Of a stretch of 64,000 bases of DNA, positions 4,115 to 61,461 are shown piece after piece; positions within the stretch are counted from its first letter, which is position 1, and every line of letters starts with the position of its first letter. Source of the stretch: an uncultured delta proteobacterium (GTDB taxonomy: Bacteria; Desulfobacterota; Binatia; UBA9968); contig CAVYTU010000015.1 of the NCBI GenBank assembly GCA_963771465.1, positions 512,001 to 576,000 of the forward strand. The letters are read 5' to 3'. The notes under the pieces are model-generated. The model was not told where the DNA came from and searched no databases. It was given only the letters and a program-made list of their open reading frames with translations. The position numbers were made by a program, and so were the translations under genes.

Positions 4115-4129
4115 GCAAAAAAGATACCA
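4115..4129 (-). promoter_or_regulatory. Sigma-54 -24/-12 promoter upstream of glgB-treZ
   Basis: TGGTATCTTTTTTGC (GG-N10-GC); UAS-like TGTAGGCAAATTCCTTGC at 4224-4241. Confidence 0.65.
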
Positions 4130-4349
4130 CCGCCGATCGTGGTGCAAGTGGTTTAAATTAAAGGAAGCGGTTTGTGCTGGGGAAGCCCATCACTATGTGC
4201 GCGTAGCGGGTTTTTTCTGTCTTGCAAGGAATTTGCCTACAAACCTAAGTCGCTCTCATGGGCCATGATTCCAGATGCATTGTGTTCGCTACGGAACTAT
4301 CAGCGTGCCATTCGCTGAGTCAAAAAAATTTCAATCGTGGAATTCGGGT

Positions 4350-7125
4350 TCACGGTGGGTCGCTGGCGCGCGTCATCGTCGCTGCTGGCTTCACAGGGAA
4401 ATGGATTTTGAAAATCGTTCCTCGACCCGGCTCACTCGACACTTCAATTCTGCCGTTGTGAGATTTGACGATACGATCGCAGATCGGCAGTCCGAGTCCC
4501 AAGCCGCGTCGCTTCTTCGAGGTAAAAAACGGTTGAAAAATTCTCGGCAAAATCTCAGCGTCGATGCCGATCCCGGTATCGGCCACGGTAACGATGATTT
4601 GATTGGCGCCATTGACCGTCGCCCCAAGGGTGAGAATGCCACCCTTTGGCATCGCATCCACAGCATTCAAGGAAAGATTCAACAACACCTGTTGCACCTG
4701 CTGCGGGTCCGCGTAAATTCGCGGCAATTGCCCATCGATATTGAGCGCCGTTTCGACGTGGTTTTTTGCCGCGTGCGTCTGCACCAAATCGACCGTCTTC
4801 TGAACAATCTGCTCGATATCGGTCGGCACAAAATCAGCGTCTTTCGGACGCCCGAATTCGAGAAGTTCTTGCACCAGTATTTCGCAGCGCTTGGCCTCTT
4901 CGGCAATGATCTGAACATGATGATAATCCGCGTCGGCGGGATCCATGTTGGCGAGCAACGCTTGGGCGAAACCCAAAATAATTCCCAAAGGATTGTTAAA
5001 CTCATGGGCCATGGACGCGGTCAGCTCGCCGACCGCCACGAGTCGGCCTGAGGCGAGCAGTTGTAGCTCTAGTTCCTGCGCCTGATTGCGCAGGTGCTCT
5101 TCGCTCTGACGCAGCGCCGCTTCCGCCCGCATACGCTCGACGAACTGGCCGATCTCGCCGCCGATCGCTTGTACCACCTTCAAGAGTTCCTCATCCGGTT
5201 CCCGAAACGCCGTGCTGAAAAACTCGATAACCCCGAGTACCTCGTTGCGCATGTGGATGGGAAAAGCGAAAGCACTTTGCAGGCTCTCAGTCACGGGAAA
5301 GGAAAGCTCTAAGCGTGTCGGCATCTTTCTTAACATCCGCGATCCAGATGGATTGCTCGCCGGCCCAAACGCGGCCGGGAAGCCCCACACCACGGGCCAG
5401 CGGGGGACATGCATTACAGCCGGCAAAATGTTTCGACGGACTTTGCCAAGTATCCATGCACTCGATCATCTGGCTACTTTTATTGACCATCCAGAGCGCG
5501 CCGAGCTCCCAATTGAGTCCCTCACCCATCACTTTCAGGATTCTGCTCCACGCCGCTTCCAGCGTTTCCGATTCGGCCAGCGCCAACGTCACCGCGTGTT
5601 CGGTCGACAGCCGCCGAGCAAATTGTTTCCGGCCAGTAACGTCGCGAATGCACTCCAACAAAATTCGCTCGCCGGCCCGGTCATAGATTAACTTGAATCG
5701 ACTCTCCACCTCGAGAACTTGACCGTGCCTGGTTCGCTGTTTCAATTCGCCGGTCCATTCTCCCCGCTCCAGCAACACCGCCTGTAAATTTGTCCAGCCA
5801 TCGGGAAATTCCGTGGCGAGCAGACCTTGGCTTGAACGACCGATAGCCTCCTCCTGCGAGTAACCGTAGAGTTCCTCCGCGCCGCGGTTCCAGTAAACAA
5901 TCCGGCCGTCGAGCTCTCTCGCAAAAATCGCTTCGTTTGCCAGATTCAAAAGATCGGCCTGGCGTTGTAAGAATGATTCTTGTTTGCGCAAAGCGGCTTC
6001 GACTCGGTCCCGTTCATTTCTACGATCGCTCAACAGTTTGCCGGCACGTTCCATCTCCTGCGCCAGTCCTTCCAGTTCCGCGATGTGCGAAGTCGCGGCA
6101 AGCGAGATCGGTTCGCCCCGCCCCAGATCATGGGCGGCGCGCGATAAGGCTTCGATGGAACGGGCAACCTGGCGCGCGAAGATCAACGCGACGCCGAGGC
6201 CGAAGATCAAAAGAAATAAACCGCCGCCGCCCACCATCGCCAGCGAACGGTATAAAATGGCGTTCACCTCCGAGCTCGGCACCGTCACGGCAACATACCA
6301 ACCCGACCGCTGCGAGCGGCTGACGGCGGCAAATGAGCGCCGACCGCCTTCGGCGACACCATCGATGAATTGTTCCGACGCCTGGAGATTGACCTGTTCG
6401 AGCAAACCCCCGATGGGTTTGCCAACCCGATTTGCCGCGTCGAGAGTTATGGCGACGATATTTTTTTTACTATCGAACAACGTGCCGAGCCACTCACGCG
6501 GCAATTTTTGTTTAGTCAAAATTTCCGTGAAAATCCCAGGCTCGATCGCCGCGGTGAGAACGTAAATGATGGTCTGTTCACGCACCACCGGAACATGAAT
6601 ATTAATGCCGCTCTCGCCTGAAGTCGAAACAGGAAAATCGCTGATCACGGGCTGACGCGTGCGCAACACTCCGTTCAGGCTCTCGCTATTTATGCCGCCC
6701 GAATCCTCGGAGAGGGGTTTGGCGATGTTCGTTAGCCGTCGGCCGCGCGGATCGAATAACGACACGCTTTTCCAACTGTTCTGGGTGCGGAGGAAGCGTC
6801 CTGCAACGACGCGGAATTCTTGCACGGCGCCAAAATCCAAGGGTTCGGAAGTAGCGAGCGCCGTAAGATTCGTTACAGAAGACTCGATTTCCTGGTCGAT
6901 GGCGAGCGCCAAAGCGCGGGCGGTATCTTTGAGTCCGCGCTGCCGGTCGGCTTGCTCCTGGCGCGCAAAGAGAACCATCATGAAGACTGAAAAGCAAAGC
7001 AGTGGAACTAGCCCTGCGATGATCAATCTAATCAGATATGAATTGAGCGTCGTGGGACGGCGGAAAAACCAGCCGATCAGGGAGGAGTCGGAACTACCGG
7101 CAACAGTCTCCATGCTTTCAGCCAT
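4350..7125 (-). CDS. Membrane sensor histidine kinase (Cache-like, HAMP, PAS, GAF, HisKA, HATPase; NtrB-like); one frameshift near 5300
   Basis: Two TM helices, PAS (YWNRGAEELYGY), GAF (GLPGRVW...AFAFPI), H-box AHEFNNPL, N-box LNLSLNAVDAM, G-boxes DTGIG and GLGLGL; ORFs 5287-7125 and 4350-5426. Confidence 0.88.
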
Positions 7126-7364
7126 TGCCTAAGACTCAGGTCGACTGGAATATCGTATCATACATAAGCTCGACATCACTGAAACAGTGCAATTAACGCG
7201 CGACTGGGTCACTTTCAAGACAGCCTTCGCTCTCAAAGAGAATTTGATGGCACGCCGAAACGATATTACTAAATTCTACGAGGCGCGGCGAGACCGTAGT
7301 CCCGATAAACACCGCGAGCGGATAGAAAATTCCATCGACGCGGCAAAAGCGAGATTCTTTGTTA

Positions 7365-8201
7365 TCAATAGTTTCGACCCGGAAGAACACTCAATTTTTC
7401 CTCCCCCGCAGCGGTCCACTGAGCGGCTTGCTCGGCGGTCAGTGGACCGCGCGGCAGTTGCCGGCCATCTTCGTATCCCCAACTCTCCACGTCGTCGCGA
7501 TACTGGGTGCGCGATAGCAGCGTGCCCCGGCAAACTCGATTTCGAGAGAGTGGCTCGTCTTTTTCCTTCTGTAGCTGGTCCAGCAGCGATTCCATTACCG
7601 GCGTAGGGACTAGGGATCGGTCTGACTGATATATGAAACCGAATAACACGAGGTGGCTGAGAAGCACCCGCCAGTGCGGTCCGAAACGTTCCAACAGCCG
7701 TGGCCAGTCGAGCCGGGTCGCGCAAGCATGGATGAGATGGGCGACATCGGCGCCGTCATAGCGCTCCCGCTCCATGACAAACGCCTTGGCCCAAATCATT
7801 TCTTCAGGTGGGCAAAACATTACCGGAATGTCGAACACTTGTCCCGTCACCGCATGTTCGAACCAACCATCGTCGACTGTGCAGACACCGTTTCCCGAAC
7901 TGAAAATAAGGTCGATAAAGTCTCGGTGGTAATAGATCTTGCCGAGCCAATGCGGATAGCATAGCTCCGTCTTGTAGTGCTTGTCGGCGAGTGTTTTTAG
8001 GGTAATCTCGACGTCCGCTGGCCGCACGAAGAGATCCATATCTTTCGTCTTGCGACTGCTTCCCGAGTACACCGCAAAGGCGTGGCCGCCGCCGACCAAG
8101 AAACTAATCTTCGCTGCATTGAGCGTCTCAAGTACATCACGATAGAATATTTTCTGGTTGAACGTTCTTATGGAAAATAATCCAGCAGCTTTACTGTTCA
8201 T
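7365..8201 (-). CDS. Pol-beta-superfamily nucleotidyltransferase
   Basis: FLVGGGHAF...RKTKDMDLFV (GG...DxD), third Asp in FIDLIF, ERERYDGADV. Confidence 0.85.
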   Translation of the reverse strand: MNSKAAGLFSIRTFNQKIFYRDVLETLNAAKISFLVGGGHAFAVYSGSSRKTKDMDLFVRPADVEITLKTLADKHYKTELCYPHWLGKIYYHRDFIDLIFSSGNGVCTVDDGWFEHAVTGQVFDIPVMFCPPEEMIWAKAFVMERERYDGADVAHLIHACATRLDWPRLLERFGPHWRVLLSHLVLFGFIYQSDRSLVPTPVMESLLDQLQKEKDEPLSRNRVCRGTLLSRTQYRDDVESWGYEDGRQLPRGPLTAEQAAQWTAAGEEKLSVLPGRNY

Positions 8202-8211: not shown

Positions 8212-8931
8212 CTAAGACTCCGGGATTTCCATAATTCGAAACGCTGGGCGATCCGGAAAGACCCGTTGTAAGAGTTTCATGGCGACATTGTAGACGGGCA
8301 CATCGGTTTTCGTGCGTCCCTCCGGAGCGCCGTGATGCGCGTGGCCGTGAAAGACGGCGGTTACCGGATAACGATTAAGCGGTTCCTCAAGTCGGCTCGA
8401 ACCCAGGAACGGAAAGATCTCCGCGGGTTCGCCGATGACCGTGGCCTCGATCGGCGAATAGTGAAGCAAAACAATCCGCTTATCCGAGCGCAGCCGTGCC
8501 AGGGCAGATTCGAGCTTTAGTGCCTCATCGATCGCTTCGTGGACAAAACGTTTGATCGTTTCCTCGCCCCAGGGACCGAGCGCCCGCTCGCCAAAGCCAC
8601 CGGCAAACCCTTTGACGCCGACAAAGCCGACCCCATCAACCTCACGCGCGTCACCGTCCAGAAGCATGGCACCGGCATCCGAAAAAATCCTTTTGACTTC
8701 GTCCTGTTTGCCGGACTCAAATTCATGATTCCCGAGCACCGCCAGGACGGGGATTTTCAGGCTGCTTATTTCCTTTGCCAGAACTATCGCTTCCTCGGGC
8801 AGACCGTAATCGATAAGATCGCCACATAGCAACAGCACGTCGGCGCTCTGAGCGATTTGCATAAATAGCGGACGCAACATGTCATGCGATGTTTTGTTGC
8901 AATGAATGTCCGCGAGCGCCGCGACACGCAT
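8212..8931 (-). CDS. Calcineurin-like (Icc-type) metallophosphoesterase
   Basis: DIH, CGDL, LGNHE, LLHYSP, HGHAH metal motifs. Confidence 0.9.
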   Translation of the reverse strand: MRVAALADIHCNKTSHDMLRPLFMQIAQSADVLLLCGDLIDYGLPEEAIVLAKEISSLKIPVLAVLGNHEFESGKQDEVKRIFSDAGAMLLDGDAREVDGVGFVGVKGFAGGFGERALGPWGEETIKRFVHEAIDEALKLESALARLRSDKRIVLLHYSPIEATVIGEPAEIFPFLGSSRLEEPLNRYPVTAVFHGHAHHGAPEGRTKTDVPVYNVAMKLLQRVFPDRPAFRIMEIPES

Positions 8932-9142
8932 GTTTTTCTCCCGGTATTTTCTTGTCGGACCTCGATAGATCTGGCATGGCGTAAGGCAGTCCCATGATAA
9001 TCAGTTTTCTCATGAGTTCTGCTTCATCTTAGGATATTGTGAAAGATAGGTCGCCGGGTTGGCTAAGGCATTGCGATGGGTTAAGACTTCTTTCTTTCGT
9101 CTTCGACTTTTTAAGAACTTTTTGGCGTAGATCCGGGTTATT

Positions 9143-9282
9143 ATTATCGCGGCGATTCTTGTCGCAGCCGTTCATTTTCTGCTGCTTGCCCCGAGGCCTA
9201 AGCCGAAGAGCCCGCCAGTGCAGGCTCAACTAGCCAGGACCACAAACACCAGTACCAAACCGAATATATGTTTTTTATTCAT
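9143..9282 (-). pseudogene. Degraded glycine-zipper lipoprotein remnant
   Basis: Reads MNKKHIFGLVLVFVVLAS*ACTGGLFGLGLGAS, then AAENERLRQE in a shifted frame; resembles 18250-18606. Confidence 0.45.
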
Positions 9283-9406
9283 TTCATCTTCTCCTGACTA
9301 ACGCGCTCTAGCTCCGGCAACGCCGATTTTTCCAATCTCAACGGTGCGCAATCGTTGAATCAATCTGCCAGCCCGTTGAAGCTATGCGTCGCAATTCGTG
9401 GCTACC

Positions 9407-9421
9407 GCAAGGCGTATGCCA
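9407..9421 (-). promoter_or_regulatory. Sigma-54 promoter
   Basis: TGGCATACGCCTTGC; UAS-like TGTCTGTAAAAATCCTCCA at 9492-9510. Confidence 0.8.
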
Positions 9422-9585
9422 GTAGTCTTCGCTGATCGGCTGGTTGGTAATGGTAGGAATTCACATTATCGGCTCATTAGACTTGAGCCGTTGGAGGATT
9501 TTTACAGACAACTAGAAAGTGATTTCCCTCTCTTTGGAACGATTTGAGCCGCCAACCGCTTCAATCGTCTCGCAGTTCCCGGCGC

Positions 9586-9975
9586 TCACGTTGTGCTGTG
9601 TAGTGGGCCGTGAGCATGGGCCGCAATCAGGTCCAGCAAGTTGTTTTCGGAAAACGGTTTGCGCAGGACGCGGGTATGGTGAACTGTATTTTCCACTTCC
9701 AGCTCTGAGCGGTAACGGTCCGGGTCGCCGGTCATATAAATCGTTGCAATCTCAGGCTCGTGAATTCGTATGCGCTCGACTAACTCGATGCCGGTTTCCT
9801 CGCCCATGGAAATATCCGTGAGCACGAGATCCGGTCGAAACCGGAGATAAGTCAGATATCCTGCGGCGACGCTTTCGGCGCTGCGGACTTCGTAACCTTC
9901 ATTGCCCAGCCTTTCCCCAATCAGAAAACTCAGATTGTCATCGTCATCTACGACTAAGACTTTGAACAGTTTCAT
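9586..9975 (-). CDS. Stand-alone response regulator receiver
   Basis: KVLVVDDD, DLVLTD, IYMTG, LRKPF. Confidence 0.85.
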   Translation of the reverse strand: MKLFKVLVVDDDDNLSFLIGERLGNEGYEVRSAESVAAGYLTYLRFRPDLVLTDISMGEETGIELVERIRIHEPEIATIYMTGDPDRYRSELEVENTVHHTRVLRKPFSENNLLDLIAAHAHGPLHSTT

Positions 9976-10033
9976 AATCGTTACTCCTTCAATGACGGAC
10001 AGACCTGTCTGAATATTCACGCTATTTATTCAA

Positions 10034-10432: not shown

Positions 10433-10831
10433 TTACGATTTCGCCTTTTCATCTTCGATTAGTTTAAGAACCTTTTCACGTAATCGATCATTGCCATTGA
10501 CGGTTTTATAGAGCGCGGCATAACGTTCCATGGTCAAACCTTCCCGTTCGAGCACCGAACCGAACTTTGCCACCGCCTCTTGCTGTATCCTGGTCTTTTC
10601 CTCCGGCGTCTTTGCGACGCTCACCTGGGGCTCGTAAATCGTCCTCATTTTAAGAAACTCCACGTAGGATTTCGCAAAGGCCTGCAATTCTTGGTCGCTA
10701 ACTTCTGACGACGCGCCGGGAGACTGTTGAGCCGGCGCTTGGGTCTGAGCACAAACGGCCCCAACCGATAGCGGGAGCGAAACCCCAAGCGTCAAGCCAA
10801 GCACCAGAGAATTTGTAAACTGTTTTTTCAT
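10433..10831 (-). CDS. Secreted DUF4168-like helical protein
   Basis: Signal peptide; SDQELQAFAKSY...IQQEA...EGLTMERY pattern. Confidence 0.75.
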   Translation of the reverse strand: MKKQFTNSLVLGLTLGVSLPLSVGAVCAQTQAPAQQSPGASSEVSDQELQAFAKSYVEFLKMRTIYEPQVSVAKTPEEKTRIQQEAVAKFGSVLEREGLTMERYAALYKTVNGNDRLREKVLKLIEDEKAKS

Positions 10832-10911
10832 CGCACCTCCACTTGATTAAAAAGTAAACCGAACCATCTCGATTCCACACAAGACGGTTCGGTTCCCGTT
10901 TGAGAATTCGA

Positions 10912-10926
10912 GCAACGGCTATGCCA
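10912..10926 (-). promoter_or_regulatory. Sigma-54 promoter
   Basis: TGGCATAGCCGTTGC, about 80 bp upstream of the start at 10831. Confidence 0.8.
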
Positions 10927-11145
10927 ACCGGGCACGCGCGTCGGTTTCTTGATTTGAAGGTATTTTGAGCAAAAACTGCGCGGCAAATTAGCTGGACTTA
11001 CAGGTGCAATTCATACACCCCAAGAAGAGTTTCCCTTCAGCCCGAACACCGAGTGGGAAGTGATGGCGTGGGTCGAATGAGACGTGAGCCTGGAGTAGTG
11101 AAGAAAGCAACACGGCGGTTGGAGAATCAGGTTATCTGCCGATTA

Positions 11146-11645
11146 CATAATCGTGATGCCTCCTGTTGGTAGCGCCGATGCAAACGCTTTATAATTCGTG
11201 TTTGAGCAAGAAACTGTCCGCTAATCCTCGGCGCTTAATGTCACGGCGAAATCAACCCCGAAAGAATTGAGAATTAGAAACGTGTAAACACGTATCGCGG
11301 TGCGAGTCGCGATTGCACTGGCTTTGCGAACTTCTCGCGCCACGGCGGAGGTTACCTGCTCGACTTTTTCCAGGTCGTTGTTGTAGTGCACCCACAATTG
11401 AACGAGAATCGTCGAGTCAGTATCCCCCGTGTGAAAATTGACAATGTTGTTCTGCACAAGCTTGCTGTTTCTGCGTGTTACGCCAGCCGATGCGCTCCAC
11501 GTAACCTTCTTCCTGTCGAAAGTTTTACGAAATGGCCGACCTGCAGCGGGCGGTCGGCTTTAATGTATAACCCGGCAAAGAGATTGCCCAGCGTGTCTTG
11601 AAGCGCGATCGCGACCGCTAAACTGCCGATCTCTAGCGTAGTCAC
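11146..11645 (-). pseudogene. MscS mechanosensitive channel remnant
   Basis: GSLAVAIALQDTLGNLFAG, DRPLQVGHFVKL, VHYNNDLEKVE, KRLHRRYQQE in broken frames; N-terminus and internal parts missing. Confidence 0.7.
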
Positions 11646-12069
11646 CGCCGAGATTTAAGGACGATATTGATTCAAATAAACCCGGATTCAGCCGCTGAAA
11701 TCGCCACTCAGAAGCACAGACCCACCGTCTTCTTCACGACGAAAGGAGCGCGCCCCACTCGCCGATTCAATTTCAACTGCGCAGTCCTCCGGGATGAATA
11801 GTAATTGGCCGATTTCCACCGCGGTAACATTCCATGGGGGAGCGCGTACATGCGCTCGGCATCTTTGAGTGAATTAGCCTTTTGCGATACTGACAGCGCC
11901 GCCAGACCATCATGCATGAGTCACCTTTGCGGTTCGGTCGTGAGCGATTCCAACCCGCTTGGAATGTTATGAACCCATAGGGAAATCCCCTACAGGTTCA
12001 AATGTAGAATACTATCGCTCTGAATACCGGACAGCGTGAAATTTCAATGATTTACACCGGCGAACTGAT

Positions 12070-12084
12070 TGGCACTTCACTTGC
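12070..12084 (+). promoter_or_regulatory. Sigma-54 promoter
   Basis: TGGCACTTCACTTGC; palindrome-like ATAGGGAAATCCCCTACA at 11977-11994. Confidence 0.8.
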
Positions 12085-12131
12085 TCTAATCAAATGGATG
12101 TCTGGTTTGAAAAGAGGCATCACCACTACCC

Positions 12132-52511: not shown

Positions 52512-52560
52512 CGACGACTCCTTATAAGTAAAATGAGGAATGCTTTTTACCAGCGACGGC

Positions 52561-52701: not shown

Positions 52702-52716
52702 TGGCATGTCAGTTGC
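52702..52716 (+). promoter_or_regulatory. Sigma-54 promoter (divergent from katE)
   Basis: TGGCATGTCAGTTGC. Confidence 0.82.
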
Positions 52717-52835: not shown

Positions 52836-53366
52836 ATGAAATCTAAAGCACTGTCCATTACGGGATCCGTTTTGGTGGCGGTCTGGATGACTAGCAATAC
52901 GGTCCACGCACAGTCAAAGGAAACCAAAAGCGAAACAATCCATCCGCCGCTATCTGGACCTGGAGCATCGGTTGGAGGATCCCGATCGGAACGAACTGGT
53001 CCAGGAGTGCCGTTGCCAGAAGGAAGTCGTGAATCCGGTACAGTCGAAAAGGGTCCAAGTGGTAACTCCAATAGGGCAACGAATGATAGTAGCGAGAATC
53101 TTAAAGCAGTCCAGCAAGCGCTTAAAGATAAGGGTTATGATCCCGGTCCGATAAATGGCGTAATGACGCCACAAACGACCGCCGCGATCAGGTCATTTCA
53201 GAGCGCGAGTAAAATATCACCGACCGGCACTCTCACCGCGGAAACTTCAGCAAAGCTCGGAGCACAATCTAATAGCTCAGGGAGTGGGTCCAGTGGCACG
53301 CGTAATACGAAGTCAAGTGATACGACGGTAGGAAAAGATACTGACCAACCTAACAAGAATCCCTAA
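52836..53366 (+). CDS. Secreted low-complexity protein with peptidoglycan-binding domain
   Basis: VQQALKDKGYDPGPING.MTPQT.AAIRSFQ...TG.L. Confidence 0.85.
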   Translation: MKSKALSITGSVLVAVWMTSNTVHAQSKETKSETIHPPLSGPGASVGGSRSERTGPGVPLPEGSRESGTVEKGPSGNSNRATNDSSENLKAVQQALKDKGYDPGPINGVMTPQTTAAIRSFQSASKISPTGTLTAETSAKLGAQSNSSGSGSSGTRNTKSSDTTVGKDTDQPNKNP

Positions 53367-53536
53367 ATATAGAATGACGATAAAGCCTGTTATTTGGGCG
53401 GCCACCGCGGCAGCCGAACGCTGCGCGGTGGTCCGTCACAGAGTGCAATGTGGCATAGTTCCTACCAATCCGGTACAGAGCCGCACCTGCCCAAACTCAG
53501 ACCGACGACGAGCCCGGTCTACGATAACTACGAGAC

Positions 53537-55657
53537 ATGCGCATGTTGTTAAGCAATGACCAGAATATATTGCTTAATCGCGACCTGGCATGGCTCGAAT
53601 TCAATCGGCGTGTTTTACACGAAGCTAAAGATTCCGCCGTTCCAATCCTGGAACGCGTTAAGTTCCTCGCCATTTTCAGCTCAAATCTTGATGAATTTTT
53701 CATGGTTCGAGTTGCCGGCTTGAAACGCCAGGTCTACACGCAACAACTGAGTCCCGCTGCTAATAGCACCGACGTCGCTTCAATACTAAACGCGATTTCC
53801 CGAAGAGTTCATGAACTAACGGACGAGCAACATCTCTGTTTTCTCGACACTATCCTCCCAGAGCTCACACGAGAAGGCATCCATTTCGTGCGCCCAGATG
53901 AAATGACTGGTGATCAGGAACAATGTCTAGAAGAGTTCTTTCACAAGAAACTTTATCCGATTGTAACTCCTTTGGCGGTGGATCCCGGCCATCCGTTTCC
54001 ATATCTGACCAACAGATCCCTTTCATTGATCGTTTCACTCCGATCGAAAGGTTCTTCACCCTTGCCCTACACTGAGCTTTCCATCGTCAATATTCCGGCT
54101 CAAGTCGTCCCGCGCTTTCTCCAGCTTCCGACCAAGGAAGGACAGTATGCGTTCATGCTGCTCGAACATGTCTTACGTCATTATTTACCGCGCCTCTATC
54201 AGGGTTTCGATATCCTTTCGGCGCACGCCATTCGAGTTACCCGTGACGCCGAGTTCGGTCTTGTGCGGCGGCGTGACGAGGACTTGCTGATAAGCATTGA
54301 AAATGGAATCAGAGAACGACGCAAGGGTGATGCGGTACGGTTACAGTACGATCCAGATCTACCCAAAGAATTGTTGACCGAATTAGTCGAGGAACTGGAA
54401 CTTAGCGTGGAGGATCTCTATCCCGGAAAAGGTTTTACCGCTTTTACCGATCTCTTTCAGCTTTACGGCGCCGTGCATACGCCTCGATTGCGAGATCGAA
54501 TTCAAACTCCGATAAAGACGTCTTTGTTCGAGCGAGGACTCGATATCTGGAATACTATTCGGAGCGGCGACTTAATGTTCTTTCATCCATACCATTCGTT
54601 CGACGTCGTCACACACTTCGTAGAGGCGGCTGCCAAGGATCCCAAGGTCCTAGCGATTAAAATGACTCTATATCGTGTAAGCCCCCATTCACCCATTGTG
54701 CACGCCCTAGCGTATGCGGCTGAGGCGGGCAAAGAGGTATCGGTCTTGGTCGAGCTCCAGGCACGTTTTGATGAAGAGGCGAACATTATCTGGGCTAGAG
54801 CACTCGAAGAAGTAGGAGCTCATGTGGTCTATGGATTGGTCGGCTACAAAACCCACTGCAAAATATGCCTCGTAGTCCGTCAGGAAACAGACGGAATTCG
54901 GCGTTATTGCCATCTCTCAACGGGCAACTACAACGCCCGCACTGCGGAAATCTATAGCGATCTCGGAATCTTCACTTGTCGAGAAACCTTTGGCGAAGAC
55001 TTAACCGAGCTTTTTAACCTCCTGACGGGATACACAAGACCCCAAAAGTTTCATCATCTAGCTCTGGCACCTATCGGCTTACGGAATCATTTTATCGCTC
55101 TGATTAACAAAGAAACTGAGAACGCCCGCGCCGGTAAGGAAGCGCGGATCATTGCGAAGGTTAATAGTCTCGTCGACGAGGCCGTCATTGAACAGATCTA
55201 TCTGGCGAGCAAAGCCGGTGTGAAAATCGATCTTATCGTGCGCGGCATGTGCACTCTCCGTCCGGGCATACCGGCGATGTCGGAAAATATTCGCGTGCTT
55301 TCGATTATCGACCGGTATCTTGAACACGCGCGAGCGTTCTATTTTCATAACGGCGGAGATCCGACCTTCTGGCTCGCGTCGGCAGATTGGATGCCGCGAA
55401 ACTTCGAAAGGCGCATCGAAATCGCTTTTCCCGTCGTGGAACCCGCGCTGCAACTCAGATTAAAGGAAATCCTGGAACTGCAACTCGCTGACAACGTAAA
55501 AGGCTGGTGGATGCAAGCAGATGGCAGCTACATCCGCGGGCCCAACGAAAAAAGAACCATAAGATTTCAAGAGCGGCATTACGAGAAGTTACAGGCCGAA
55601 GTCGGCTCATCAAGCTTCAAAAGCACAACGCCATTGAGCACTGCTTTAATGTCATAG
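53537..55657 (+). CDS. ppk1: Polyphosphate kinase 1
   Basis: NRDLAWLEFNRRV, NLDEFFMVRVAGL, HPYHSF, ELQARFDE, KTHCK, STGNYN, RYLEH, SADWM.RN. Confidence 0.96.
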   Translation: MRMLLSNDQNILLNRDLAWLEFNRRVLHEAKDSAVPILERVKFLAIFSSNLDEFFMVRVAGLKRQVYTQQLSPAANSTDVASILNAISRRVHELTDEQHLCFLDTILPELTREGIHFVRPDEMTGDQEQCLEEFFHKKLYPIVTPLAVDPGHPFPYLTNRSLSLIVSLRSKGSSPLPYTELSIVNIPAQVVPRFLQLPTKEGQYAFMLLEHVLRHYLPRLYQGFDILSAHAIRVTRDAEFGLVRRRDEDLLISIENGIRERRKGDAVRLQYDPDLPKELLTELVEELELSVEDLYPGKGFTAFTDLFQLYGAVHTPRLRDRIQTPIKTSLFERGLDIWNTIRSGDLMFFHPYHSFDVVTHFVEAAAKDPKVLAIKMTLYRVSPHSPIVHALAYAAEAGKEVSVLVELQARFDEEANIIWARALEEVGAHVVYGLVGYKTHCKICLVVRQETDGIRRYCHLSTGNYNARTAEIYSDLGIFTCRETFGEDLTELFNLLTGYTRPQKFHHLALAPIGLRNHFIALINKETENARAGKEARIIAKVNSLVDEAVIEQIYLASKAGVKIDLIVRGMCTLRPGIPAMSENIRVLSIIDRYLEHARAFYFHNGGDPTFWLASADWMPRNFERRIEIAFPVVEPALQLRLKEILELQLADNVKGWWMQADGSYIRGPNEKRTIRFQERHYEKLQAEVGSSSFKSTTPLSTALMS

Positions 55658-55716
55658 CAAGTAGTCGCATTAAAATCATAATTACCATCCATCCGCGCGA
55701 AGGTGAGAAGACGCCC

Positions 55717-56682
55717 ATTAAAATCACATTGATCCATAACCCCGCCGCCGGCGATGGTTCACACCCATCGGGTGACCGAATTGTCGAAATGATTGAGTCC
55801 GCCGGGCACAAGATTAAATATCACTCTATAAAAGAGAAGGATTGGAAAAAAGCGCTTAAGAAATCTTGCGATATCATCGCCATCGCGGGCGGTGATGGTA
55901 CCGTCGGTAAGGTCGCCCGCCGGCTCGTCGGCAGCACCACCCCTGTCGCAATCTTACCTATGGGCACGGCCAATAATATCGGCCACGCCTTAGGGCTGAC
56001 AGGCAGAGCGCTAGAATCTTTGATCACGGAATGGGAAACGGCGCGTCGTTTAAACTTCGACATTGGCGAAGCTGAGGGTCCGTGGGGATCGCAGTACTTT
56101 GTCGAGGGGGTCGGAATCGGTTTATTTGCTGCGACGATTTTGAGCATTGAAGAACGAAACGATCCAGCACTTGCGGCTGCGGTCGGTCGCGAAGATGAAA
56201 TCACGCGGGTCCTCGAGATATTTAAAGAGCAGGTACGAAAACATCGACCCAAAAAGATAAACGTCCTTTTAGATGACGAAGACCTTTCGGACGATTACGT
56301 TCTAATACAGGCATTGAATATTCGATATGCTGGGCCCAACCTTGATCTAGCGCCTGGCGCGGATACGAACGACGGACTGCTCGACGTAGTTTTGCTTCGC
56401 CGCGGCGAGGAAGACAAGTTGAGCAGATATCTCAGCCATTGCATAAACCGCAAACGCGTAAAAGCAAATCTAACTGTCCATCGTGGTCGACATTTACAAA
56501 TTGAGTCGAACGGATGTCCCATTCACATCGATGATAAAGCGTGGCCCGTAGAGAATGACAGACACCAAACTCGGCCGAAGCCAATTAATATCAAGGTCGC
56601 GCCTCATTCCGTCTTATTTATCTGCCCTCAGAGGACAAGGCGGCGCCCGCAACGTCCGCGAGTCGTTACGCGGGAAAAATAA
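55717..56682 (+). CDS. Diacylglycerol kinase (DAGK/YegS) family protein
   Basis: IHNPAAG, GGDGTV, LPMGTANN, DGLLDV; start uncertain (in-frame ATT at 55717). Confidence 0.85.
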   Translation: MKITLIHNPAAGDGSHPSGDRIVEMIESAGHKIKYHSIKEKDWKKALKKSCDIIAIAGGDGTVGKVARRLVGSTTPVAILPMGTANNIGHALGLTGRALESLITEWETARRLNFDIGEAEGPWGSQYFVEGVGIGLFAATILSIEERNDPALAAAVGREDEITRVLEIFKEQVRKHRPKKINVLLDDEDLSDDYVLIQALNIRYAGPNLDLAPGADTNDGLLDVVLLRRGEEDKLSRYLSHCINRKRVKANLTVHRGRHLQIESNGCPIHIDDKAWPVENDRHQTRPKPINIKVAPHSVLFICPQRTRRRPQRPRVVTREK

Positions 56683-56795
56683 GCGTTGGACGCGTTACAC
56701 GTGAAAAGATTTACCCGCAGGCACGCTTAGAAAATCACTGGAGAGCTTAATAAATTCTGGCGTAATATCTCCCAACAGTGTGCGTTCGTGATTCT

Positions 56796-57791
56796 ATGAA
56801 GCAACGGTGGTCTTGGCAATTCGTGAAAGATGTAGTTTCTCAGTGGATTGAAGACCAGCCATTCCAGCTCGCGGCTGCCTTATCGTATTACACGCTATTT
56901 TCGCTCGCGCCTCTATTGATCATCGCGATATCGGTCGCCGCCCTCGCCTTTGGCCGGGAAGCCGCACAAAACCAGATTGTTGAAACCATCCAAGGAATGA
57001 TCGGCAAAGAGAGTGCGCAAGCGATTCAGGAAATGATTCAACATGCCGGCAATAAAACGACAACCGGAATTATCTCGACGGTCGTGGGTATCATTGCTCT
57101 GCTCTTCGGCGCGGGAGGTGTGGTGGGACAGCTACAGACTTCTCTTAACACGATCTGGGGAGTCGTGGCCAAATCCGGCCAAGGAGTCTGGGGGTTCATT
57201 CGGCAGCGTTTTGTCTCTTTCGCCATGGTTCTGGCGATCGGGTTTCTTCTGTTAGTATCTCTCGTAATCACTGCTTTAGTGACTGGGTTAACAAAGTACG
57301 CGGGCAATTTGATCGGCGGAGCTGCCTTGGTCGCTCATGCAGTCGATATCCTGCTGTCGTTCACATTTGTAACGATTCTGTTTGCGCTGATTTATAAATT
57401 TCTTCCCGATGTACGGATTCAATGGAAAGACGTTGCGGTTGGGGCGGCGCTGACTTCGTTTCTCTTCACGATAGGAAAATTTTTCATAGGGCTTTACTTA
57501 GGAAGTAGCGGGGTTACTTCTGCTTACGGCGCTGCTGGATCGCTGATTACGGTGCTCTTGTGGGTCTATTACTCGGCGCTAATATTTTTCCTCGGCGCTG
57601 AGTTCACTCAAGTCTATGCGAGCCAATATGGATCGGGAGTTGTTCCCGCGAAGAATGCGGAAAGTATCGCCAATGCTAGACCGGAGGAAAAACGAGCATC
57701 GCCTCCGCCTGCGAGTCGAAGCGGAAGCCAAGCCCAACCCCGTCCTATCAGGGATCAAAGCCAAGAGAAATTCCGCAGAGGCGGCCGATAA
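56796..57791 (+). CDS. YihY/BrkB-family membrane protein
   Basis: AAALSYYTLFSLAP, LNTIW, YKFLPD, YGAAGSL..LLWVYY...GAE. Confidence 0.92.
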   Translation: MKQRWSWQFVKDVVSQWIEDQPFQLAAALSYYTLFSLAPLLIIAISVAALAFGREAAQNQIVETIQGMIGKESAQAIQEMIQHAGNKTTTGIISTVVGIIALLFGAGGVVGQLQTSLNTIWGVVAKSGQGVWGFIRQRFVSFAMVLAIGFLLLVSLVITALVTGLTKYAGNLIGGAALVAHAVDILLSFTFVTILFALIYKFLPDVRIQWKDVAVGAALTSFLFTIGKFFIGLYLGSSGVTSAYGAAGSLITVLLWVYYSALIFFLGAEFTQVYASQYGSGVVPAKNAESIANARPEEKRASPPPASRSGSQAQPRPIRDQSQEKFRRGGR

Positions 57792-57795: not shown

Positions 57796-58254
57796 CTATG
57801 GACGATTGATGGATTGAGCGCTATTGCCCTCGACTTGTCGCTTCGGTTCCAGCAAGTGTTTGGTCATCGCCCACAGCGTGCTGGCAACCGCCCTAAAAAA
57901 AGCCTGTCCCTTGATCGTGGCAAGTTCGTTCTTGACCTGACTTTTTACTGCGCTCCCAATAGTTTGCTGGGGCAGTGCACACGTGGACGGAGCGCCTGGC
58001 GGATCAGCGGTTATGTCTGGCACATTTCCTTGGCGTCCGAGTACATAACCCACCAGGAGTGCCCCGCCCATGATTACCCACGGCCGCTGCTTCACTTGAG
58101 AACGAAGATCGAAAGTGTCTTTTACCCCCTCGACGGCCTCCTCGACGCGGTGATCCAACATCGCCAGCTTCTTTGCCATTGCCGATCGTGTGTTCGCGAT
58201 ATCTTGACGGCCTTTTTTTATCTCTTGTCGGATGTCGTCGGATTCGTCAGCCAT
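57796..58254 (-). CDS. DUF3618/ElaB-like membrane-anchored protein
   Basis: DIANTRSAM..KL..L, then RPW..MGGALLVGYVLG. Confidence 0.7.
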   Translation of the reverse strand: MADESDDIRQEIKKGRQDIANTRSAMAKKLAMLDHRVEEAVEGVKDTFDLRSQVKQRPWVIMGGALLVGYVLGRQGNVPDITADPPGAPSTCALPQQTIGSAVKSQVKNELATIKGQAFFRAVASTLWAMTKHLLEPKRQVEGNSAQSINRP

Positions 58255-58637
58255 TGCGCAGTCTCCTTCATCCTCGCCACGGTCGGCTCAGGTACCACAT
58301 CGACTGCCTCAGCCTTTGTTTTGCCCTTAGCGAATAGTCCCCCGCCCAGGACGACAAGCAGTCCCCCAACGATACCGTAACAGCCCCAGAGCGGAACCGT
58401 TGTGAAGGCGTCCAGTGCGTGGACCAGCATGAGCATCAGCAATATTCCACCCATAGCCATAGTCCCGATGCCAATGCCTAGGGCGATCGCCGCGCTCTTT
58501 GCTTTGTATAGCTCGTACTTCACCTCGAGCTTTGTCAGCGTCATTTCCTGGCGCAGTAACTCTGTGGCGTCGTTGGCGATACCGCCCAACAACGATACGA
58601 AGCTCGGTTCTGCGGCCGGTGGCGATCCGGTGTCCAT
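58218..58637 (-). CDS. YqjE-like (holin superfamily III) membrane protein
   Basis: LLRQEMTLTKLE, two TM helices, PEPTVARMKE...W. Confidence 0.8.
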   Translation of the reverse strand: MDTGSPPAAEPSFVSLLGGIANDATELLRQEMTLTKLEVKYELYKAKSAAIALGIGIGTMAMGGILLMLMLVHALDAFTTVPLWGCYGIVGGLLVVLGGGLFAKGKTKAEAVDVVPEPTVARMKETAQWLTNPTTSDKR

Positions 58638-58640: not shown

Positions 58641-59171
58641 TTACCTCGCACGCCGGGCGAGCAAATAGCCAAGACCAACACCAATCAGTATAAATTGGAT
58701 CGGGTAAGTGCGGACTAGGGCGGTGACGTCTTTTGCCAGATGTTCAAATTTTTTCTCGCGTAGGTAAAAGCTTGTCGATTCCAACCCATCAACTACCGCT
58801 GTTGCCGCTGTAGCCACCGTGCCTTCGCGCGGCGCCTTTTCCCTGATAACGTTTGCCAGCGAGCCGATCTTCTCACCAACGACTGTGGCCGCTTCGTTCG
58901 CCTTGTTCGCGGCCGTTGCACCCAGCTCTTGCGCCTTGGCCGTAAGATTGCCGATGGCCCCGCCCGTTTTATCGTTAAATTCTTTTAAGCGCTGCTCCAC
59001 CTCATACACGGCATGATCGCGAGCATATCCGTATCTCTCCTGCACTAATCCAATCAGCTTGTCTTTATGACCGCCGATTAAGTCCAGCTCATCATCGGTG
59101 AGTCTGCCCCACCACGATTTCAGGTCGCCGCGCATTTGCTTCCACTGCCCTGCAGAAATTTCTTCGTTCAT
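58641..59171 (-). CDS. CsbD domain fused to DUF883/ElaB-like C-terminus
   Basis: GQWKQMRG..K.WWGRLTDDEL...G.VQERYG; VRTYP...IGVGLGYLLAR. Confidence 0.88.
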   Translation of the reverse strand: MNEEISAGQWKQMRGDLKSWWGRLTDDELDLIGGHKDKLIGLVQERYGYARDHAVYEVEQRLKEFNDKTGGAIGNLTAKAQELGATAANKANEAATVVGEKIGSLANVIREKAPREGTVATAATAVVDGLESTSFYLREKKFEHLAKDVTALVRTYPIQFILIGVGLGYLLARRAR

Positions 59172-59241: not shown

Positions 59242-59256
59242 GCAAAACTAGCGCCA
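59242..59256 (-). promoter_or_regulatory. Sigma-54 promoter of the csbD operon
   Basis: TGGCGCTAGTTTTGC. Confidence 0.7.
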
Positions 59257-59354: not shown

Positions 59355-59678
59355 GTCGCCAAACGCGGTTTTACAGCTTAAGAGCCTGGACGACGCAGCG
59401 GCGCTTGGATGAGAGACAAACCGCTGCCAGGAGTTCGTCATCGGCGGCTATACCCTGGCAATCCGTTCGATGCACTGATCGTAGGTAAGGTCCTACTTGA
59501 AAAGCGACGAACGACGCGGGCGCCGACTGCGGATGAGATGAAAGAGTGGCGGTGGCTGAAGCCGGAGCTTGTCGCTCAGATCGAGTTCACGAAATCGACG
59601 CCGGACACGCATTTGAGGTACGCTAGTTTTGCTGCGTTGCGAAAGGATAAAGAGGCGCGGGAAATCGTTCGGGAATAA
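59355..59678 (+). pseudogene. C-terminal remnant of an ATP-dependent (LigC/LigD-type) DNA ligase
   Basis: EPGRRSGAW, QEFVIGGY, FDALIVG, WLKPELVAQIEF, HLR.ASF..LR.DK in broken frames. Confidence 0.8.
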
Positions 59679-60038: not shown

Positions 60039-60444
60039 TAGTTAACCTCGTGGACTTGTGCATGCTCTTCGCATCGCAAGTAGTCTAATGGATACATGCT
60101 TGATGCCAAAAACCTTCCCTCCAAACTAACGATAGCATTGCGTCTGCCAGGAGAGGGCGGTGTGAATACGACCCCGACGCTCCAGTTCGTTCGATGTGGA
60201 AGCAGCTGGGCAATGGACAACACGGGCGGAGTATCGGCCATCGGCCATCAACAATGACAAAATGGTTGACACATTGTCACATCACTCGTTGCCAAAGCTG
60301 GCGTCCACAATAACCCAATTGACCGTTAGTTCTTCTCGCCACATGCCGACGTTCGGTAATTTGGCGGAATTTTTAAGACAATTCAAACTCGGATTGCGAC
60401 ATTTCTACCCCGAGCCAGTCCAGACGACGATATAGGTTCCGAGC

Positions 60445-60459
60445 TGGCACCTCTTGTGC
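60445..60459 (+). promoter_or_regulatory. Sigma-54 promoter
   Basis: TGGCACCTCTTGTGC, about 70 bp upstream of 60527. Confidence 0.6.
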
Positions 60460-60526: not shown

Positions 60527-61027
60527 ATGTCCACGAGTTTTTGCTCAGAAGCCTTACGCATCATCGGCCATGATCTAGACCTACGGGGTATCAAAACCTT
60601 TTTTCTACGTTGTGACGCTGACTTCTTTGTTGTCGAGGGTGGTTATCAATCACCCCCGGCAGTCACCCCTGTAAGTTTGCACTATGCCTCAGTCGATCTC
60701 GAGCATCTCGAGCGCAAGGAACGAGAGAGAAACGATCATCTTTCGGCGCTTAAGGATTTTTTAAGCTTGTCACAAATACTGTGGACGATCGGGACTTACG
60801 TGACTGTTAAAGGGTCTCGCTTATTTAGCGTTTGCAACAATTTATCGACCGAGACGATGCCTATCATCAAGATGGACTACGAGACGGATCAGGGCGACCG
60901 AGTCGTTGAGAATCTCACGGGCTCTGCCATTTACGAGCTAAGTGTTAGCCTTTATAAGCTGAGACGAACATCAGATATTAATAACATACGCTATCGTCGT
61001 TTCAGCGGCCTGCTGGAGAGTAATTAG
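60527..61027 (+). CDS. Hypothetical protein with internal repeat (paralog of 46446-46931)
   Basis: ALRIIGHDLD and ILWTIGTYVT repeats; Y.T..GD motif. Confidence 0.7.
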   Translation: MSTSFCSEALRIIGHDLDLRGIKTFFLRCDADFFVVEGGYQSPPAVTPVSLHYASVDLEHLERKERERNDHLSALKDFLSLSQILWTIGTYVTVKGSRLFSVCNNLSTETMPIIKMDYETDQGDRVVENLTGSAIYELSVSLYKLRRTSDINNIRYRRFSGLLESN

Positions 61028-61117
61028 GCCGGCACACCCTTTTGGTAAATGAGATTTCTTTTCGTGCTGACAGTTCTGGCAAATTCTCCATCCAGACGCT
61101 CCGACCACTCCCGAGGA

Positions 61118-61417
61118 TTAGCGACGCGACGGCCTACAGCCATCTGCGATTGAGTCAGTAGCACTCCCGTAACATTTCTCCGGTTTTGTTTTCTCATAGA
61201 ACTCGCCGCCCGGTGAATGGAATATACAACGATCGCCGCTAGATGCAGTGAAGTTGCCTTTAATCGGGTGACTCGTCGGGCATTGATCTGCGCTCAGCGG
61301 AGCAGCGATTCCGAATTCTTGTTCGATCTGTCGGGAAGATGCTGCCTCACTCGTCCAGTGTCTGCTTAACCCCGCCGCAGCCGAAAATAATAAGAAACTA
61401 GCTAAGAACCATTTCAT
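61118..61417 (-). CDS. Small secreted Cys-containing protein (nuclease-associated IKGN...H.PG domain)
   Basis: Signal peptide; CP..HPIKGN...CIFHSPGG.FY.KT.PE.C...GCR. Confidence 0.65.
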   Translation of the reverse strand: MKWFLASFLLFSAAAGLSRHWTSEAASSRQIEQEFGIAAPLSADQCPTSHPIKGNFTASSGDRCIFHSPGGEFYEKTKPEKCYGSATDSIADGCRPSRR

Positions 61418-61446
61418 ACGACATCTACCTTTCGCTCCTGTAGTTA

Positions 61447-61461
61447 GCGAAAGGCATGCCG
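61447..61461 (-). promoter_or_regulatory. Possible sigma-54 promoter
   Basis: CGGCATGCCTTTCGC, 30 bp upstream of the ATG at 61417. Confidence 0.5.

Follow-up and report, generated by a model that had tools for sequence, protein, structure and literature searches.

We analysed a 64-kb stretch of DNA (the window, G000:C15:512001-576000) from an uncultured soil bacterium whose genome, G000, comprises 6,908,018 bases in 19 contigs. The subject is a dense set of sigma-54-type (-24/-12) promoters and the genes that they face, which a first-pass annotation had read as one sigma-54-driven regulon of general stress and dormancy. The exact form of the promoter, TGGCAY-N5-TTGC, written out as TGGCAYNNNNNTTGC, has 14 matches in the window in a pattern scan of both strands, and these are the same sites, in position and strand, as had been reported at first. 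The genes are also of the kinds that model bacteria put under RpoS, SigB or EcfG, as had been claimed: the families found are Catalase, CsbD, YflT (weak), DUF892 (weak), BON, SRPBCC, a thiamine-pyrophosphate enzyme, Ku, LigD, polyphosphate kinase 1 (Ppk1) and those of alpha-glucan genes. The individual gene calls (treZ/glgB, ku/ligD, katE, csbD, YciF-like, PoxB-like, CBS, SRPBCC) agree with Pfam, the match of the YciF-like protein to DUF892 being weak.

Most of the 14 promoter regions have a second element in common, a motif recovered by de novo Gibbs sampling some 80-110 nucleotides (nt) 5' of the -24 element. It is a 19-bp palindrome, TGnAGGnAnnnTnCCTnCA, of the form TGnAGG-N7-CCTnCA with a core like GGAAA(W)TTCC, and we treat it as a candidate enhancer. 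At 12 promoters of the window its centre lies about 60-105 nt 5' of the -24 TGG, nine of them exact (9407, 12070, 16967, 17525, 18836, 19795, 37776, 44670 and 47651) and three of them near-matches (4115, 33071 and 60445).

Promoters with and without the shared upstream site

We begin with the promoters that carry the palindrome, from left to right and with protein families assigned mainly by Pfam. The near-match TGGTAT-N5-TTGC at 4115-4129 (minus strand), with its upstream site at 4223-4241 (14.8 bits, 103 nt apart), faces glycogen-branching and amylase genes on the same strand, which fall into several open reading frames (ORFs): a glgB-like one with CBM_48 and alpha-amylase domains (2464-3852), an Alpha-amylase_C (1972-2463) and a further alpha-amylase (591-1655). 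In the relative G014, a TGGTAT variant and an 18.8-bit upstream site lie beside the glgB region. Further out, to the left of the window, are genes for GlgE, TreS-Mak, a CdaA diadenylate cyclase and an NtrC-type activator. The exact promoter at 9407-9421 (minus, site 9492-9510) faces a Metallophos phosphoesterase (8212-8931), a nucleotidyltransferase-like protein (7365-8201) and then, from 7125 to 4350, a sensor histidine kinase, which is read in two ORFs that overlap in different frames (dCache, PAS and GAF, 5287-7125; GAF, HisKA and HATPase_c, 4350-5426). On the plus strand, the site at 11976-11994 (18.0 bits) and the exact promoter at 12070-12084 precede a 546-residue AAA_22 ATPase with a C-terminal BON domain (12132-13772).

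Four exact promoters follow on the minus strand. The first, at 16967-16981 (site 17055-17073, 18.5 bits), stands before an ORF of about 118 amino acids (aa) that has no Pfam family (frame 16479-17048), and the second, at 17525-17539 (site 17609-17627, 17.6 bits), faces an 85-aa ORF (17210-17467). The third, at 18836-18850, has two GGAAATTCC-type copies upstream, one at 18910-18928 and one nearer, and is followed by a 53-aa ORF, a Gly-zipper protein (18250-18606) and a 135-aa ORF (17715-18122), while the fourth, at 19795-19809 (site 19902-19920, 16.9 bits), faces an MlaC-family gene (19065-19742). A longer stretch of genes is faced by the near-match TGGCCT-N5-TTGC (33071-33085, minus), which has a site with the core GGGAATTCCC at 33137-33155 (17.5 bits, 61 nt apart); behind it lies a respiratory block of about 12 kb (20573-33032, minus), made up first of a multi-haem cytochrome (ActA-like), Fe-S and NrfD proteins (ActB/C-like), ActD and SCO1, and then of a caa3-type oxidase (COX2, COX1, COX3, COX4). 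Two exact plus-strand promoters come next: one at 37776-37790 (site 37696-37714, 18.4 bits), before a 264-aa protein with a weak YflT match (37867-38661) and a PoxB-like thiamine-pyrophosphate enzyme (38665-40413), and one at 44670-44684 (site 44580-44598, 12.8 bits), before a YflT/ActD-like protein (44707-45324), an 80-aa ORF and a phosphoribosyltransferase (45762-46433). The set is completed by the exact promoter at 47651-47665 (minus, site 47715-47733, 14.0 bits), facing a PG_binding_1 protein (47127-47588), and by the near-match TGGCAC-N5-TGTGC at 60445-60459 (plus, site 60362-60380, 14.8 bits), facing a 166-aa ORF without a Pfam family (60527-61027).

Seven further promoters that we regard as credible have no palindrome at or above 11 bits: the exact sites 10912, 20474, 33438, 48606 and 52702 and the near-matches 52561 and 59242. 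Site 10912-10926 (minus) lies 80 nt before the start codon of a group comprising a DUF4168 protein (10433-10831), a 131-aa ORF and a receiver-domain protein (9586-10020), and site 20474-20488 (minus) lies 43 nt before that of an SRPBCC gene (19957 to about 20430). The operon for DNA end joining has its exact promoter at 33438-33452 (plus), with the nearest palindrome 283 nt upstream and common to the divergent promoter 33071; it encodes a CBS-pair protein (33558-33989), Ku (34001-35059) and a LigD with phosphoesterase, ligase and primase-polymerase parts (35083-37614). Site 48606-48620 (minus), with two GGCAAATTCC-like copies about 290-300 nt upstream, faces the DUF892 (YciF-like, weak match) protein at 47961-48566. 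Two promoters then stand back to back: AGGCAT-N5-TTGC at 52561-52575 (minus) for a KatE-type long catalase, read in two overlapping ORFs (51096-52607 and 50357-51214), and the exact site 52702-52716 (plus) for a PG_binding_1 protein, Ppk1, a DAGK/YegS-like kinase and BrkB/YihY (52836-57791). Finally, TGGCGC-N5-TTGC at 59242-59256 (minus) faces a CsbD-domain protein (58641-59171), behind which are a Holin-X-family protein and a 152-aa ORF (57796-58637).

Some smaller observations on these genes stand on their own. The window has three small PG_binding_1 paralogues (42177-42650, 47127-47588 and 52836-53366), two of which are 79% identical, and two of the three come first after an exact sigma-54 promoter. 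An 89-aa ORF at 59409-59678 (plus), flanked by the CsbD operon and a receiver gene, matches solely the C-terminal region of ATP-dependent DNA ligases and resembles a ligase remnant. The genome holds two Ku-LigD sets, the one at 34001-37614 with its sigma-54 promoter and another at C9:166269-170568.

Site density, conservation and RNA libraries

The 14 exact sites are far more than the sequence composition of the window would supply. In dinucleotide-preserving shuffles, a 64-kb window had a mean of 0.51 exact sites (standard deviation 0.81, maximum 3) and none of 100 shuffles reached 14; the earlier chance estimate of 0.25 was thus of the right order of magnitude. A comparison with the genomic background, which the first-pass annotation had proposed, gave 119 exact sites genome-wide (1.10 per 64 kb) and put the window at the top of 117 bins of 64 kb, 59 of which are empty, with two neighbouring bins on contig C13 in second and third place (10 and 9 exact sites). 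Ninety of the 119 sites are non-coding, an 11.2-fold enrichment per base when coding sequence with ORF 5' ends cut back takes up 78.6% of the genome and non-coding sequence 21.4%; the other 29 fall within coding sequence. A greedy ORF map places 69 sites just 5' of a same-strand ORF and 21 elsewhere between genes, and those inside ORFs are antisense in 23 cases and sense in 6. Sites with one mismatch are enriched outside coding sequence merely 0.7-2.5-fold. The textbook consensus of the sigma-54 -12 element is TTGCW, and the base 3' of TTGC in the 90 non-coding sites is T in a fraction of 0.54, G in 0.37, C in 0.09 and never A, a bias that lies outside the search pattern.

All 14 sites of the window aim at a gene on their own strand. 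At 13 of them a start codon follows 39-134 nt past the site, with a ribosome-binding site in 12 cases, the ATG behind 12070 being without a canonical one. The first description of the sites as lying just upstream of a start and pointing into it therefore holds for orientation throughout and for distance at 13; it fails for distance at 9407, where no convincing start is found for 178-475 nt and a 66-aa ORF begins after 178 nt. The stretch of at least 178 nt behind this promoter (9230-9406, minus) could be a long leader or a small RNA; an Rfam scan of the whole window, this leader included, returned no family at its gathering score, and RNA contigs cover 8480-9133, downstream of it.

The genome also encodes the machinery that such promoters call for. 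It has a single rpoN (C14:367875-368351; 214 bits for PF04552, and 449.5 bits for TIGR02395 against a cut-off of 277.35), as had been asked of it, and 22 full-length matches, plus fragments, to the activator domain PF00158 (Sigma54_activat). Together with the conserved -24/-12 elements described below, this bears out the earlier proposal that the promoters are wired to sigma-54 and need an AAA+ activator. On the side of the sigma-70 family we found 16 Sigma70_r2 matches and scanned the six larger ones with NCBIfam models, the other ten being a 669-aa factor of primary size on C5 and nine proteins of extracytoplasmic-function (ECF) size. The six are RpoH (284 against a cut-off of 241), FliA (210 against 189.6), three ECF-type factors and a 509-aa RpoD-like paralogue (C17:914918-916447), which scores 416 against 555 with the RpoD model and 261 against 378.7 with the RpoS model. 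None of the six passes the cut-off for RpoS or SigB/F/G, in a search that did not extend to PhyR and NepR. An alternative stress sigma factor, whose presence the first-pass annotation had suggested checking, is thus not seen among the proteins scanned, but the RpoD-like paralogue exists and may be a stationary-phase (group 2) sigma factor.

Could the motifs nevertheless be chance matches, or belong to another type of sigma factor? The 29 exact sites in coding sequence probably are chance matches. For the sites of the window, however, the shuffles, the 11-fold enrichment in non-coding sequence, the presence of rpoN, the retention of position and orientation in orthologous loci and an enhancer at the classic distance all point the other way, and we give this explanation next to no credence. 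That the window sites are genuine sigma-54-type promoters we hold, judged from sequence, with far more confidence than the mechanism proposed below.

Conservation of the promoters before orthologous genes, another check that had been put forward at the outset, varied between genes: the motif was kept throughout for the AAA_22-BON, MlaC and close KatE sets and in part for Ku and CsbD. The GTDB genus of the host is deep, with AAA_22-BON orthologs just 30-43% identical, and yet a sigma-54 motif lies 120-150 nt before the start in all 7 orthologous loci with upstream DNA; one of these motifs takes the form TGGCAT-N5-CTGC, in three further loci the contig ends too early, and the set of seven includes L007 from the unpublished genome G005. 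In six of the seven the palindrome is found 85-95 nt upstream as well, for example as GAAGGGAATTCCCTTC. The MlaC orthologs have a sigma-54 motif just upstream in all three genomes examined (G014, G019 and G003). Among 13 orthologs of the window-type Ku (50-68% identical, from several genera of the family), seven have the motif upstream, exact in four and as a TGGTAY variant in three, and six have none. A second group of Ku paralogues (28-40% identical), that of the C9 type, which includes all members of another family of the order, has none upstream of 16 loci (L184 of this group is from the unpublished genome G092). All three close KatE orthologs (83-86% identical) with enough upstream DNA have an exact TGGCAT-N5-TTGC where the window has AGGCAT, whereas none was seen before catalases of lower identity, neither in the eight of the 63-74% group, to which the second copy of the host belongs, nor in the four of the 46% group, which includes L224 of G092. 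CsbD orthologs have an exact motif at -64 to -81 in 7 of 19 cases, the TGGCGC of the window being at -85. As a side observation, the AAA_22-BON family is expanded in the host, with eight matches in the genome; a further copy region is at C15:613722-615335, and at C1:56900-61765 a divergent activator gene (C1:60239-61765) is directly followed by two paralogues, an exact site being at C1:62350.

These comparisons also bear on the near-matches, of which about ten had been listed as promoters at first. Five are supported, either by the palindrome or by orthologs. Site 4115 has the shared upstream site and a TGGTAT variant that is kept in G014, 33071 has a strong upstream site, and 60445 is backed by one; 52561 and 59242 count as real promoters because orthologs carry exact motifs at the equivalent place (three of three close KatE and 7 of 19 CsbD orthologs, respectively). 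The other five have no paired enhancer at or above 11 bits and we do not retain them: the invariant -12 GC is broken in 40641 and in 48986, where GG replaces it, although a pair of GGCAAATTCC-like copies lies upstream; 47029 and 61447 each deviate at two positions; and 44297 has one mismatch and no support.

Sequence nearly identical to positions 10800-20600 occurs in 20 public runs of 14 studies, all of soil or rhizosphere, six of the runs being RNA libraries. The organism or close strains of it thus appear to be widespread. Among the matches listed for the C-terminal 699 aa of its RpoB, a complete MAG labelled Thermodesulfobacteriota comes first (78% identical), followed by MAGs labelled Myxococcota and 'delta proteobacterium' (67-69%), and on this basis we place the host no more closely than in a 'delta'-type soil lineage. 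Contigs from four RNA libraries (three studies, soil or rhizosphere) cover many genes of the proposed regulon, which shows their presence in RNA libraries only, as assembled contigs give no starts, strands or levels. Some contig ends fall near the predicted transcription starts (17517 against about 17513; 12112 and 12122, from two studies, against about 12097; 19762 against about 19783), and this is at most a weak hint. The RNA contigs differ from the region by scattered changes of one or two bases, at places other than the split genes described below.

The shared upstream site and its candidate regulators

The palindrome recurs outside the window at the same distance from sigma-54 sites. The matrix was built from 8 of the 12 paired sites of the window, with those at 4115, 33071, 47651 and 60445 left out of the building. 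Applied to the upstream regions of the 119 exact sites, it brought up eight more sites that score beyond the 99th percentile of 3000 intergenic windows drawn at random (12.7 bits), where about 1.1 of 111 would be expected, and these lie at the same distance from their promoters as the window sites do. Genome-wide, the symmetrised matrix has 522 matches of at least 11 bits, and 48 of them have a sigma-54 site with at most one mismatch 40-160 nt downstream, corresponding to 46 distinct promoters; controls with shifted positions (n=300) gave a mean of 7.0 (standard deviation 2.8, maximum 16). With exact sites only, 22 pairs were found, while the controls averaged 1.4 and never exceeded 5. For 20 paired promoters outside the window, the first ORF downstream has a Pfam family in 12 cases and none in 8. 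The families include two HAD hydrolases, a YCII/GyrI-like protein, an SH3 protein, a NusG paralogue, a LapA-domain protein and a universal stress protein (Usp), as well as a cyclopropane-fatty-acid-synthase homolog (CMAS), DUF4398, DUF2541, a receiver protein and DPBB_1.

A candidate for the protein that binds this element is encoded 13 kb left of the window. It is an NtrC-type activator (C15:498005-499462) with REC, Sigma54_activat and AAA_lid_14 domains (Pfam), a GAFTGA motif at residue 234 and a conserved C-terminal helix-turn-helix, and it aligns over its full length to the GlrR, AtoC and NtrC models. It stays under all equivalog cut-offs (GlrR 460.8 of 763, AtoC 438 of 714, NtrC 433.1 of 558.6, ZraR 401.3 of 760), and by these scores it is a member of the family and none of the named NtrC, GlrR, AtoC or ZraR orthologs. 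Its orthologs are 71-83% identical, and of the 30 genomes in the genus 29 (the unpublished G005 among them) gave a match at E <= 1e-100; we compared stretches of 40-60 kb around eight of them. In G015, G020 and G003 an ortholog of the kinase at 4350-7125 (62-65% identical) adjoins the activator gene upstream on the same strand, and because the two are adjacent in these three relatives we read kinase and activator as a cognate pair. In G000, G019 and G014 the two are parted by the same block of CdaA, TreS-Mak, GlgE, amylase and GlgB genes. Genes of the island (MlaC, DUF4168, receiver, Gly-zipper and AAA_22-BON) and sigma-54 sites lie near the activator in G014, G015, G019 and G003. Around the activators of the relatives, 9 of 32 sigma-54 sites (mostly within 20 kb) carry an enhancer of at least 11 bits, against 1.65% of random windows, and in G003 one such site is directly before the activator gene itself; a single fixed matrix slid over relatives underestimates their sites, since half-site spacing is variable. 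Taken together, this makes the kinase and the C15 activator the likely control pair of the enhancer-bearing promoters. Beside the pair, between the activator gene and TreS-Mak/GlgE, lies a gene for a CdaA-type diadenylate cyclase (C15:500250-501377) whose place is kept in G014 and G019, and its position hints at a possible link of c-di-AMP to the circuit.

From these elements we propose the following mechanism. RNA polymerase with sigma-54 would sit on the -24/-12 elements and stay closed until the C15 activator, bound to the palindromic enhancer through its C-terminal helix-turn-helix, spends ATP with its GAFTGA-bearing AAA+ domain to open the promoters. Phosphorylation of the activator's REC domain would most likely be set by the dCache-PAS-GAF histidine kinase, and since the gene of that kinase lies behind the enhancer-bearing promoter 9407, the circuit would reinforce itself by positive feedback. 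It would cover about 12 promoters of the window and about 46 in the genome, and the enhancer-less set (Ku-LigD, catalase, CsbD, polyphosphate kinase, SRPBCC and DUF892) would probably be served by one or more other activators. What the sequences show directly is the promoters and their retention in relatives, the common enhancer, and the linkage of the kinase and activator genes, whereas the protein on the enhancer, the dependence on sigma-54 in vivo and the inducing signal are what we infer here. On balance we think it probable that this stretch of DNA forms the main island of a regulon for stress protection that depends on sigma-54 and works in this way, in which a sensor-activator pair driven by ATP appears to replace the work of a stress sigma factor.

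Several observations weigh against this reading. The matrix is weak on its own, because its 522 genome matches compare with 300 in shuffled sequence, and the half-site spacing of the palindrome differs by one base between genomes. Pfam does not report HTH_8 in the C15 activator (E <= 0.001), and its C-terminal helix-turn-helix is deduced from the full-length model alignments and from conservation. One RNA contig, X6 (19658-20479), crosses the promoter at 19795 and runs into the 20474 motif, and a second, X16 (19733-19948), crosses the former as well; X6 covers every bin and may contain DNA. Many of the targets are small proteins of unassigned function, so the label of stress protection draws on those genes that could be annotated. 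In the assembly, frame changes split the genes of the kinase, the catalase, ActB and GlgB (4350-7125; 50357-52607; 28941-32260, ActB-like and in three pieces; 1972-3852), which may reflect indel errors of the assembly or real decay, so that parts of the system may be defective; the catalase orthologs of relatives are uninterrupted, with frames of 684-738 aa. The signature stress genes, in addition, cannot be tied to this activator from sequence, because their promoters are without the enhancer, both in the window, as listed above, and in relatives, where none of 14 Ku, KatE and CsbD promoters has one at or above 11 bits. A last group of points concerns a paralogous activator (C19:77989-79413, 63% identical; the 61-64% paralogue group includes the match C19:78013-79443), which has its own kinase upstream and an enhancer-like site alongside, and whose recognition-helix stretch is identical to that of the C15 activator and 12 orthologs. 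The assignment of the predicted enhancer to the C15 rather than to the C19 activator consequently depends on gene linkage only.

It follows that the enhancer might be bound by the C19 paralogue, or by both activators, and not by that of C15 alone. Besides the identical recognition helix, the C19 locus has an enhancer-like site of 11.0 bits with a TGGAAC one-mismatch motif before the receiver gene downstream, and in G012 a paralogue of the 63% type lies 5 kb from an AAA_22-BON ortholog. The C15-type activator, on the other hand, is linked to the kinase and genes of the island in six genomes (G000, G014, G015, G019, G020 and G003), and we consider a role for the paralogue in place of, or next to, the C15 activator rather improbable.

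The idea of a single regulon, with which the annotation of the window had started, has to be given up: twelve promoters of the window share an activator site and seven others lack it, as do the Ku, KatE and CsbD promoters of the relatives, and at least one more activator is therefore probably involved. A second island of sigma-54 sites, at about 150-240 kb of contig C13 (L025 and L026), is instructive in this respect. It has at least 15 exact sites, an activator gene (C13:153626-154981) and paralogues of window genes (catalase 64%, DUF892 92%, YflT-like 60%, CBS 50%, BrkB 55%), and a motif of another kind, roughly GTCTCG-N4-TTGGGAC, recurs before its sigma-54 sites, for the most part at a distance of 90-120 nt. 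One way to read these facts is that the island is a patchwork, in which several unrelated activator regulons answer to different signals and stress genes are merely clustered. The seven credible promoters without the shared enhancer would fit this, as would the roughly 22 activators of the genome and the C13 island with its own motif and activator gene, but 12 promoters in the window and about 46 in the genome share one enhancer, far over controls, and promoters with and without it are interleaved and face the same functional class; we regard a mere patchwork as unlikely. Starting again from the proposed regulon, a wider reading would be that the whole general stress response of this soil family has moved from a stress sigma factor to sigma-54 and is split over at least two sensor-activator circuits with their own enhancers and paralogous gene sets on the C15 and C13 islands. 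This is a tentative extension, which we think possible without favouring it. The first-pass annotation was therefore right in its core, namely that genes of the general stress type stand under sigma-54 and need an activator, and is partly supported overall, with amendments for at least two circuits, a possible group 2 sigma factor and the precedents discussed next.

Relation to known systems

In its predicted type, the mechanism is that of a classical NtrC-type two-component sigma-54 system, while cargo and size differ. As in NtrBC at glnAp2, GlrKR, ZraSR and AtoSC, a sensor kinase is joined to a REC-AAA+-HTH activator with GAFTGA, and as in the classical systems the -24/-12 promoter is preceded, at a distance of about 100 nt, by a palindromic enhancer. 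The enhancer here differs from the NtrC site, and about 46 promoters with a stress-protection cargo stand against nitrogen, zinc or acetoacetate genes in those systems. As far as can be told from sequence, what is new here is the shared enhancer, how large a regulon goes with it, and the pairing of kinase and activator.

It had been claimed that no characterised sigma-54 general stress regulon was known, and this was too strong, as two described systems precede the present one. The sigma-54-dependent regulator DVU3305 of Desulfovibrio vulgaris has been proposed as a modulator of general stress responses (2011, PMC3333781); its described targets are a handful of operons, among them genes for UspA-domain and membrane proteins, which respond to high pH, to heat shock and to the stationary phase by induction (PMC3333781; Kazakov et al. 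2015, PMC4641369). Like the candidate activator here it is a sigma-54-dependent response regulator of a 'delta'-type bacterium. Compared by description, it differs in its few operons, in an account that makes no mention of Ku/LigD, catalase, CsbD or trehalose genes, and in its association with a Lon-protease response regulator, which is not seen here. In Myxococcus xanthus, the enhancer-binding protein Nla28 is described as driving, through sigma-54 promoters, the early response to starvation, whose outcome is dormant, resistant spores (Ma et al. 2022, PMC9765219). Of its promoters 12 are confirmed and 58 predicted, and the targets serve defence and metabolism (PMC9765219). By that description Nla28 uses tandem 8-bp direct repeats and mostly intragenic promoters, whereas here the element is a palindrome, the promoters are intergenic and there is no fruiting-body context.

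A third system of this kind raises the question of how general the response is. NmpR of M. xanthus (NmpRSTU) is described as controlling an oxygen-utilisation regulon of 7 promoters and 23 genes through GCGCA-N5-TGCGC sites (McAllister et al. 2025, PMC11841059). It shares with our case an NtrC-like regulator of a soil bacterium, a palindrome, sigma-54 sites, a regulon defined in silico and respiratory targets, and differs, again by description, in being fed by a phosphorelay of two kinases, the circuit here having another palindrome, a far larger set and one linked kinase. By analogy, the circuit of the window could answer to one particular condition, such as low oxygen, drying or osmotic stress, and not to general stress or dormancy. 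Behind promoter 33071, which bears the enhancer, lie the only genes of Alternative Complex III that the queries used brought up in the genome (tblastn; ActA, ActC and ActD are single-copy) together with the caa3-type oxidase, whose COX1 has one further copy on C12 (43% identical, tblastn), and the presence of just one sensor kinase, with a ligand-binding domain of the dCache type, points to one defined signal. The gene content is broad, however, and reaches from the envelope and neighbours of DNA repair to storage polymers and numerous small stress proteins, and the NmpR site, as described, is unlike the enhancer here, so that we think a narrow response somewhat unlikely. To return to stress protection as the reading that we prefer: none of DVU3305, Nla28 and NmpR has this gene set or this enhancer, as far as their descriptions go.

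The closest likeness in gene content is to regulons of another kind. Those of RpoS, SigB, SigF and EcfG depend on sigma-70-family factors and -35/-10 promoters. They share with the set described here the families of katE, poxB-like, csbD, yflT-like, yciF-like, BON/OsmY-like, trehalose and glycogen, ku/ligD, cfa and usp genes, whereas the promoters here are of the -24/-12 type and no RpoS- or SigB-type factor is among the six scanned. A search of full-text literature found no description of sigma-54 wiring of such stress genes, and a cross-phylum survey of sigma-54 regulons from 2025 makes no mention of general stress, trehalose, catalase, dormancy, CsbD or LigD (PMC12316311).

An important aspect of these findings is what they could mean for the way in which bacteria organise survival. 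General stress responses are the textbook case of sigma-factor switching, with RpoS, SigB and EcfG as its agents. Here the same gene families would stand behind promoters that are unable to fire without an ATP-hydrolysing activator, and both an enhancer and a candidate kinase can be named. This provides a concrete predicted circuit of kinase, activator, palindrome and about 46 promoters for the control of survival genes in an abundant uncultured soil lineage, and suggests that the wiring of stress regulons is more plastic across phyla than model organisms imply. The signature of promoter and enhancer could, moreover, be used to read stress states in soil metatranscriptomes. If the takeover by two circuits were true, survival genes would be fully silent until an activator is phosphorylated, and the way into a protected or dormant state would follow a different logic.

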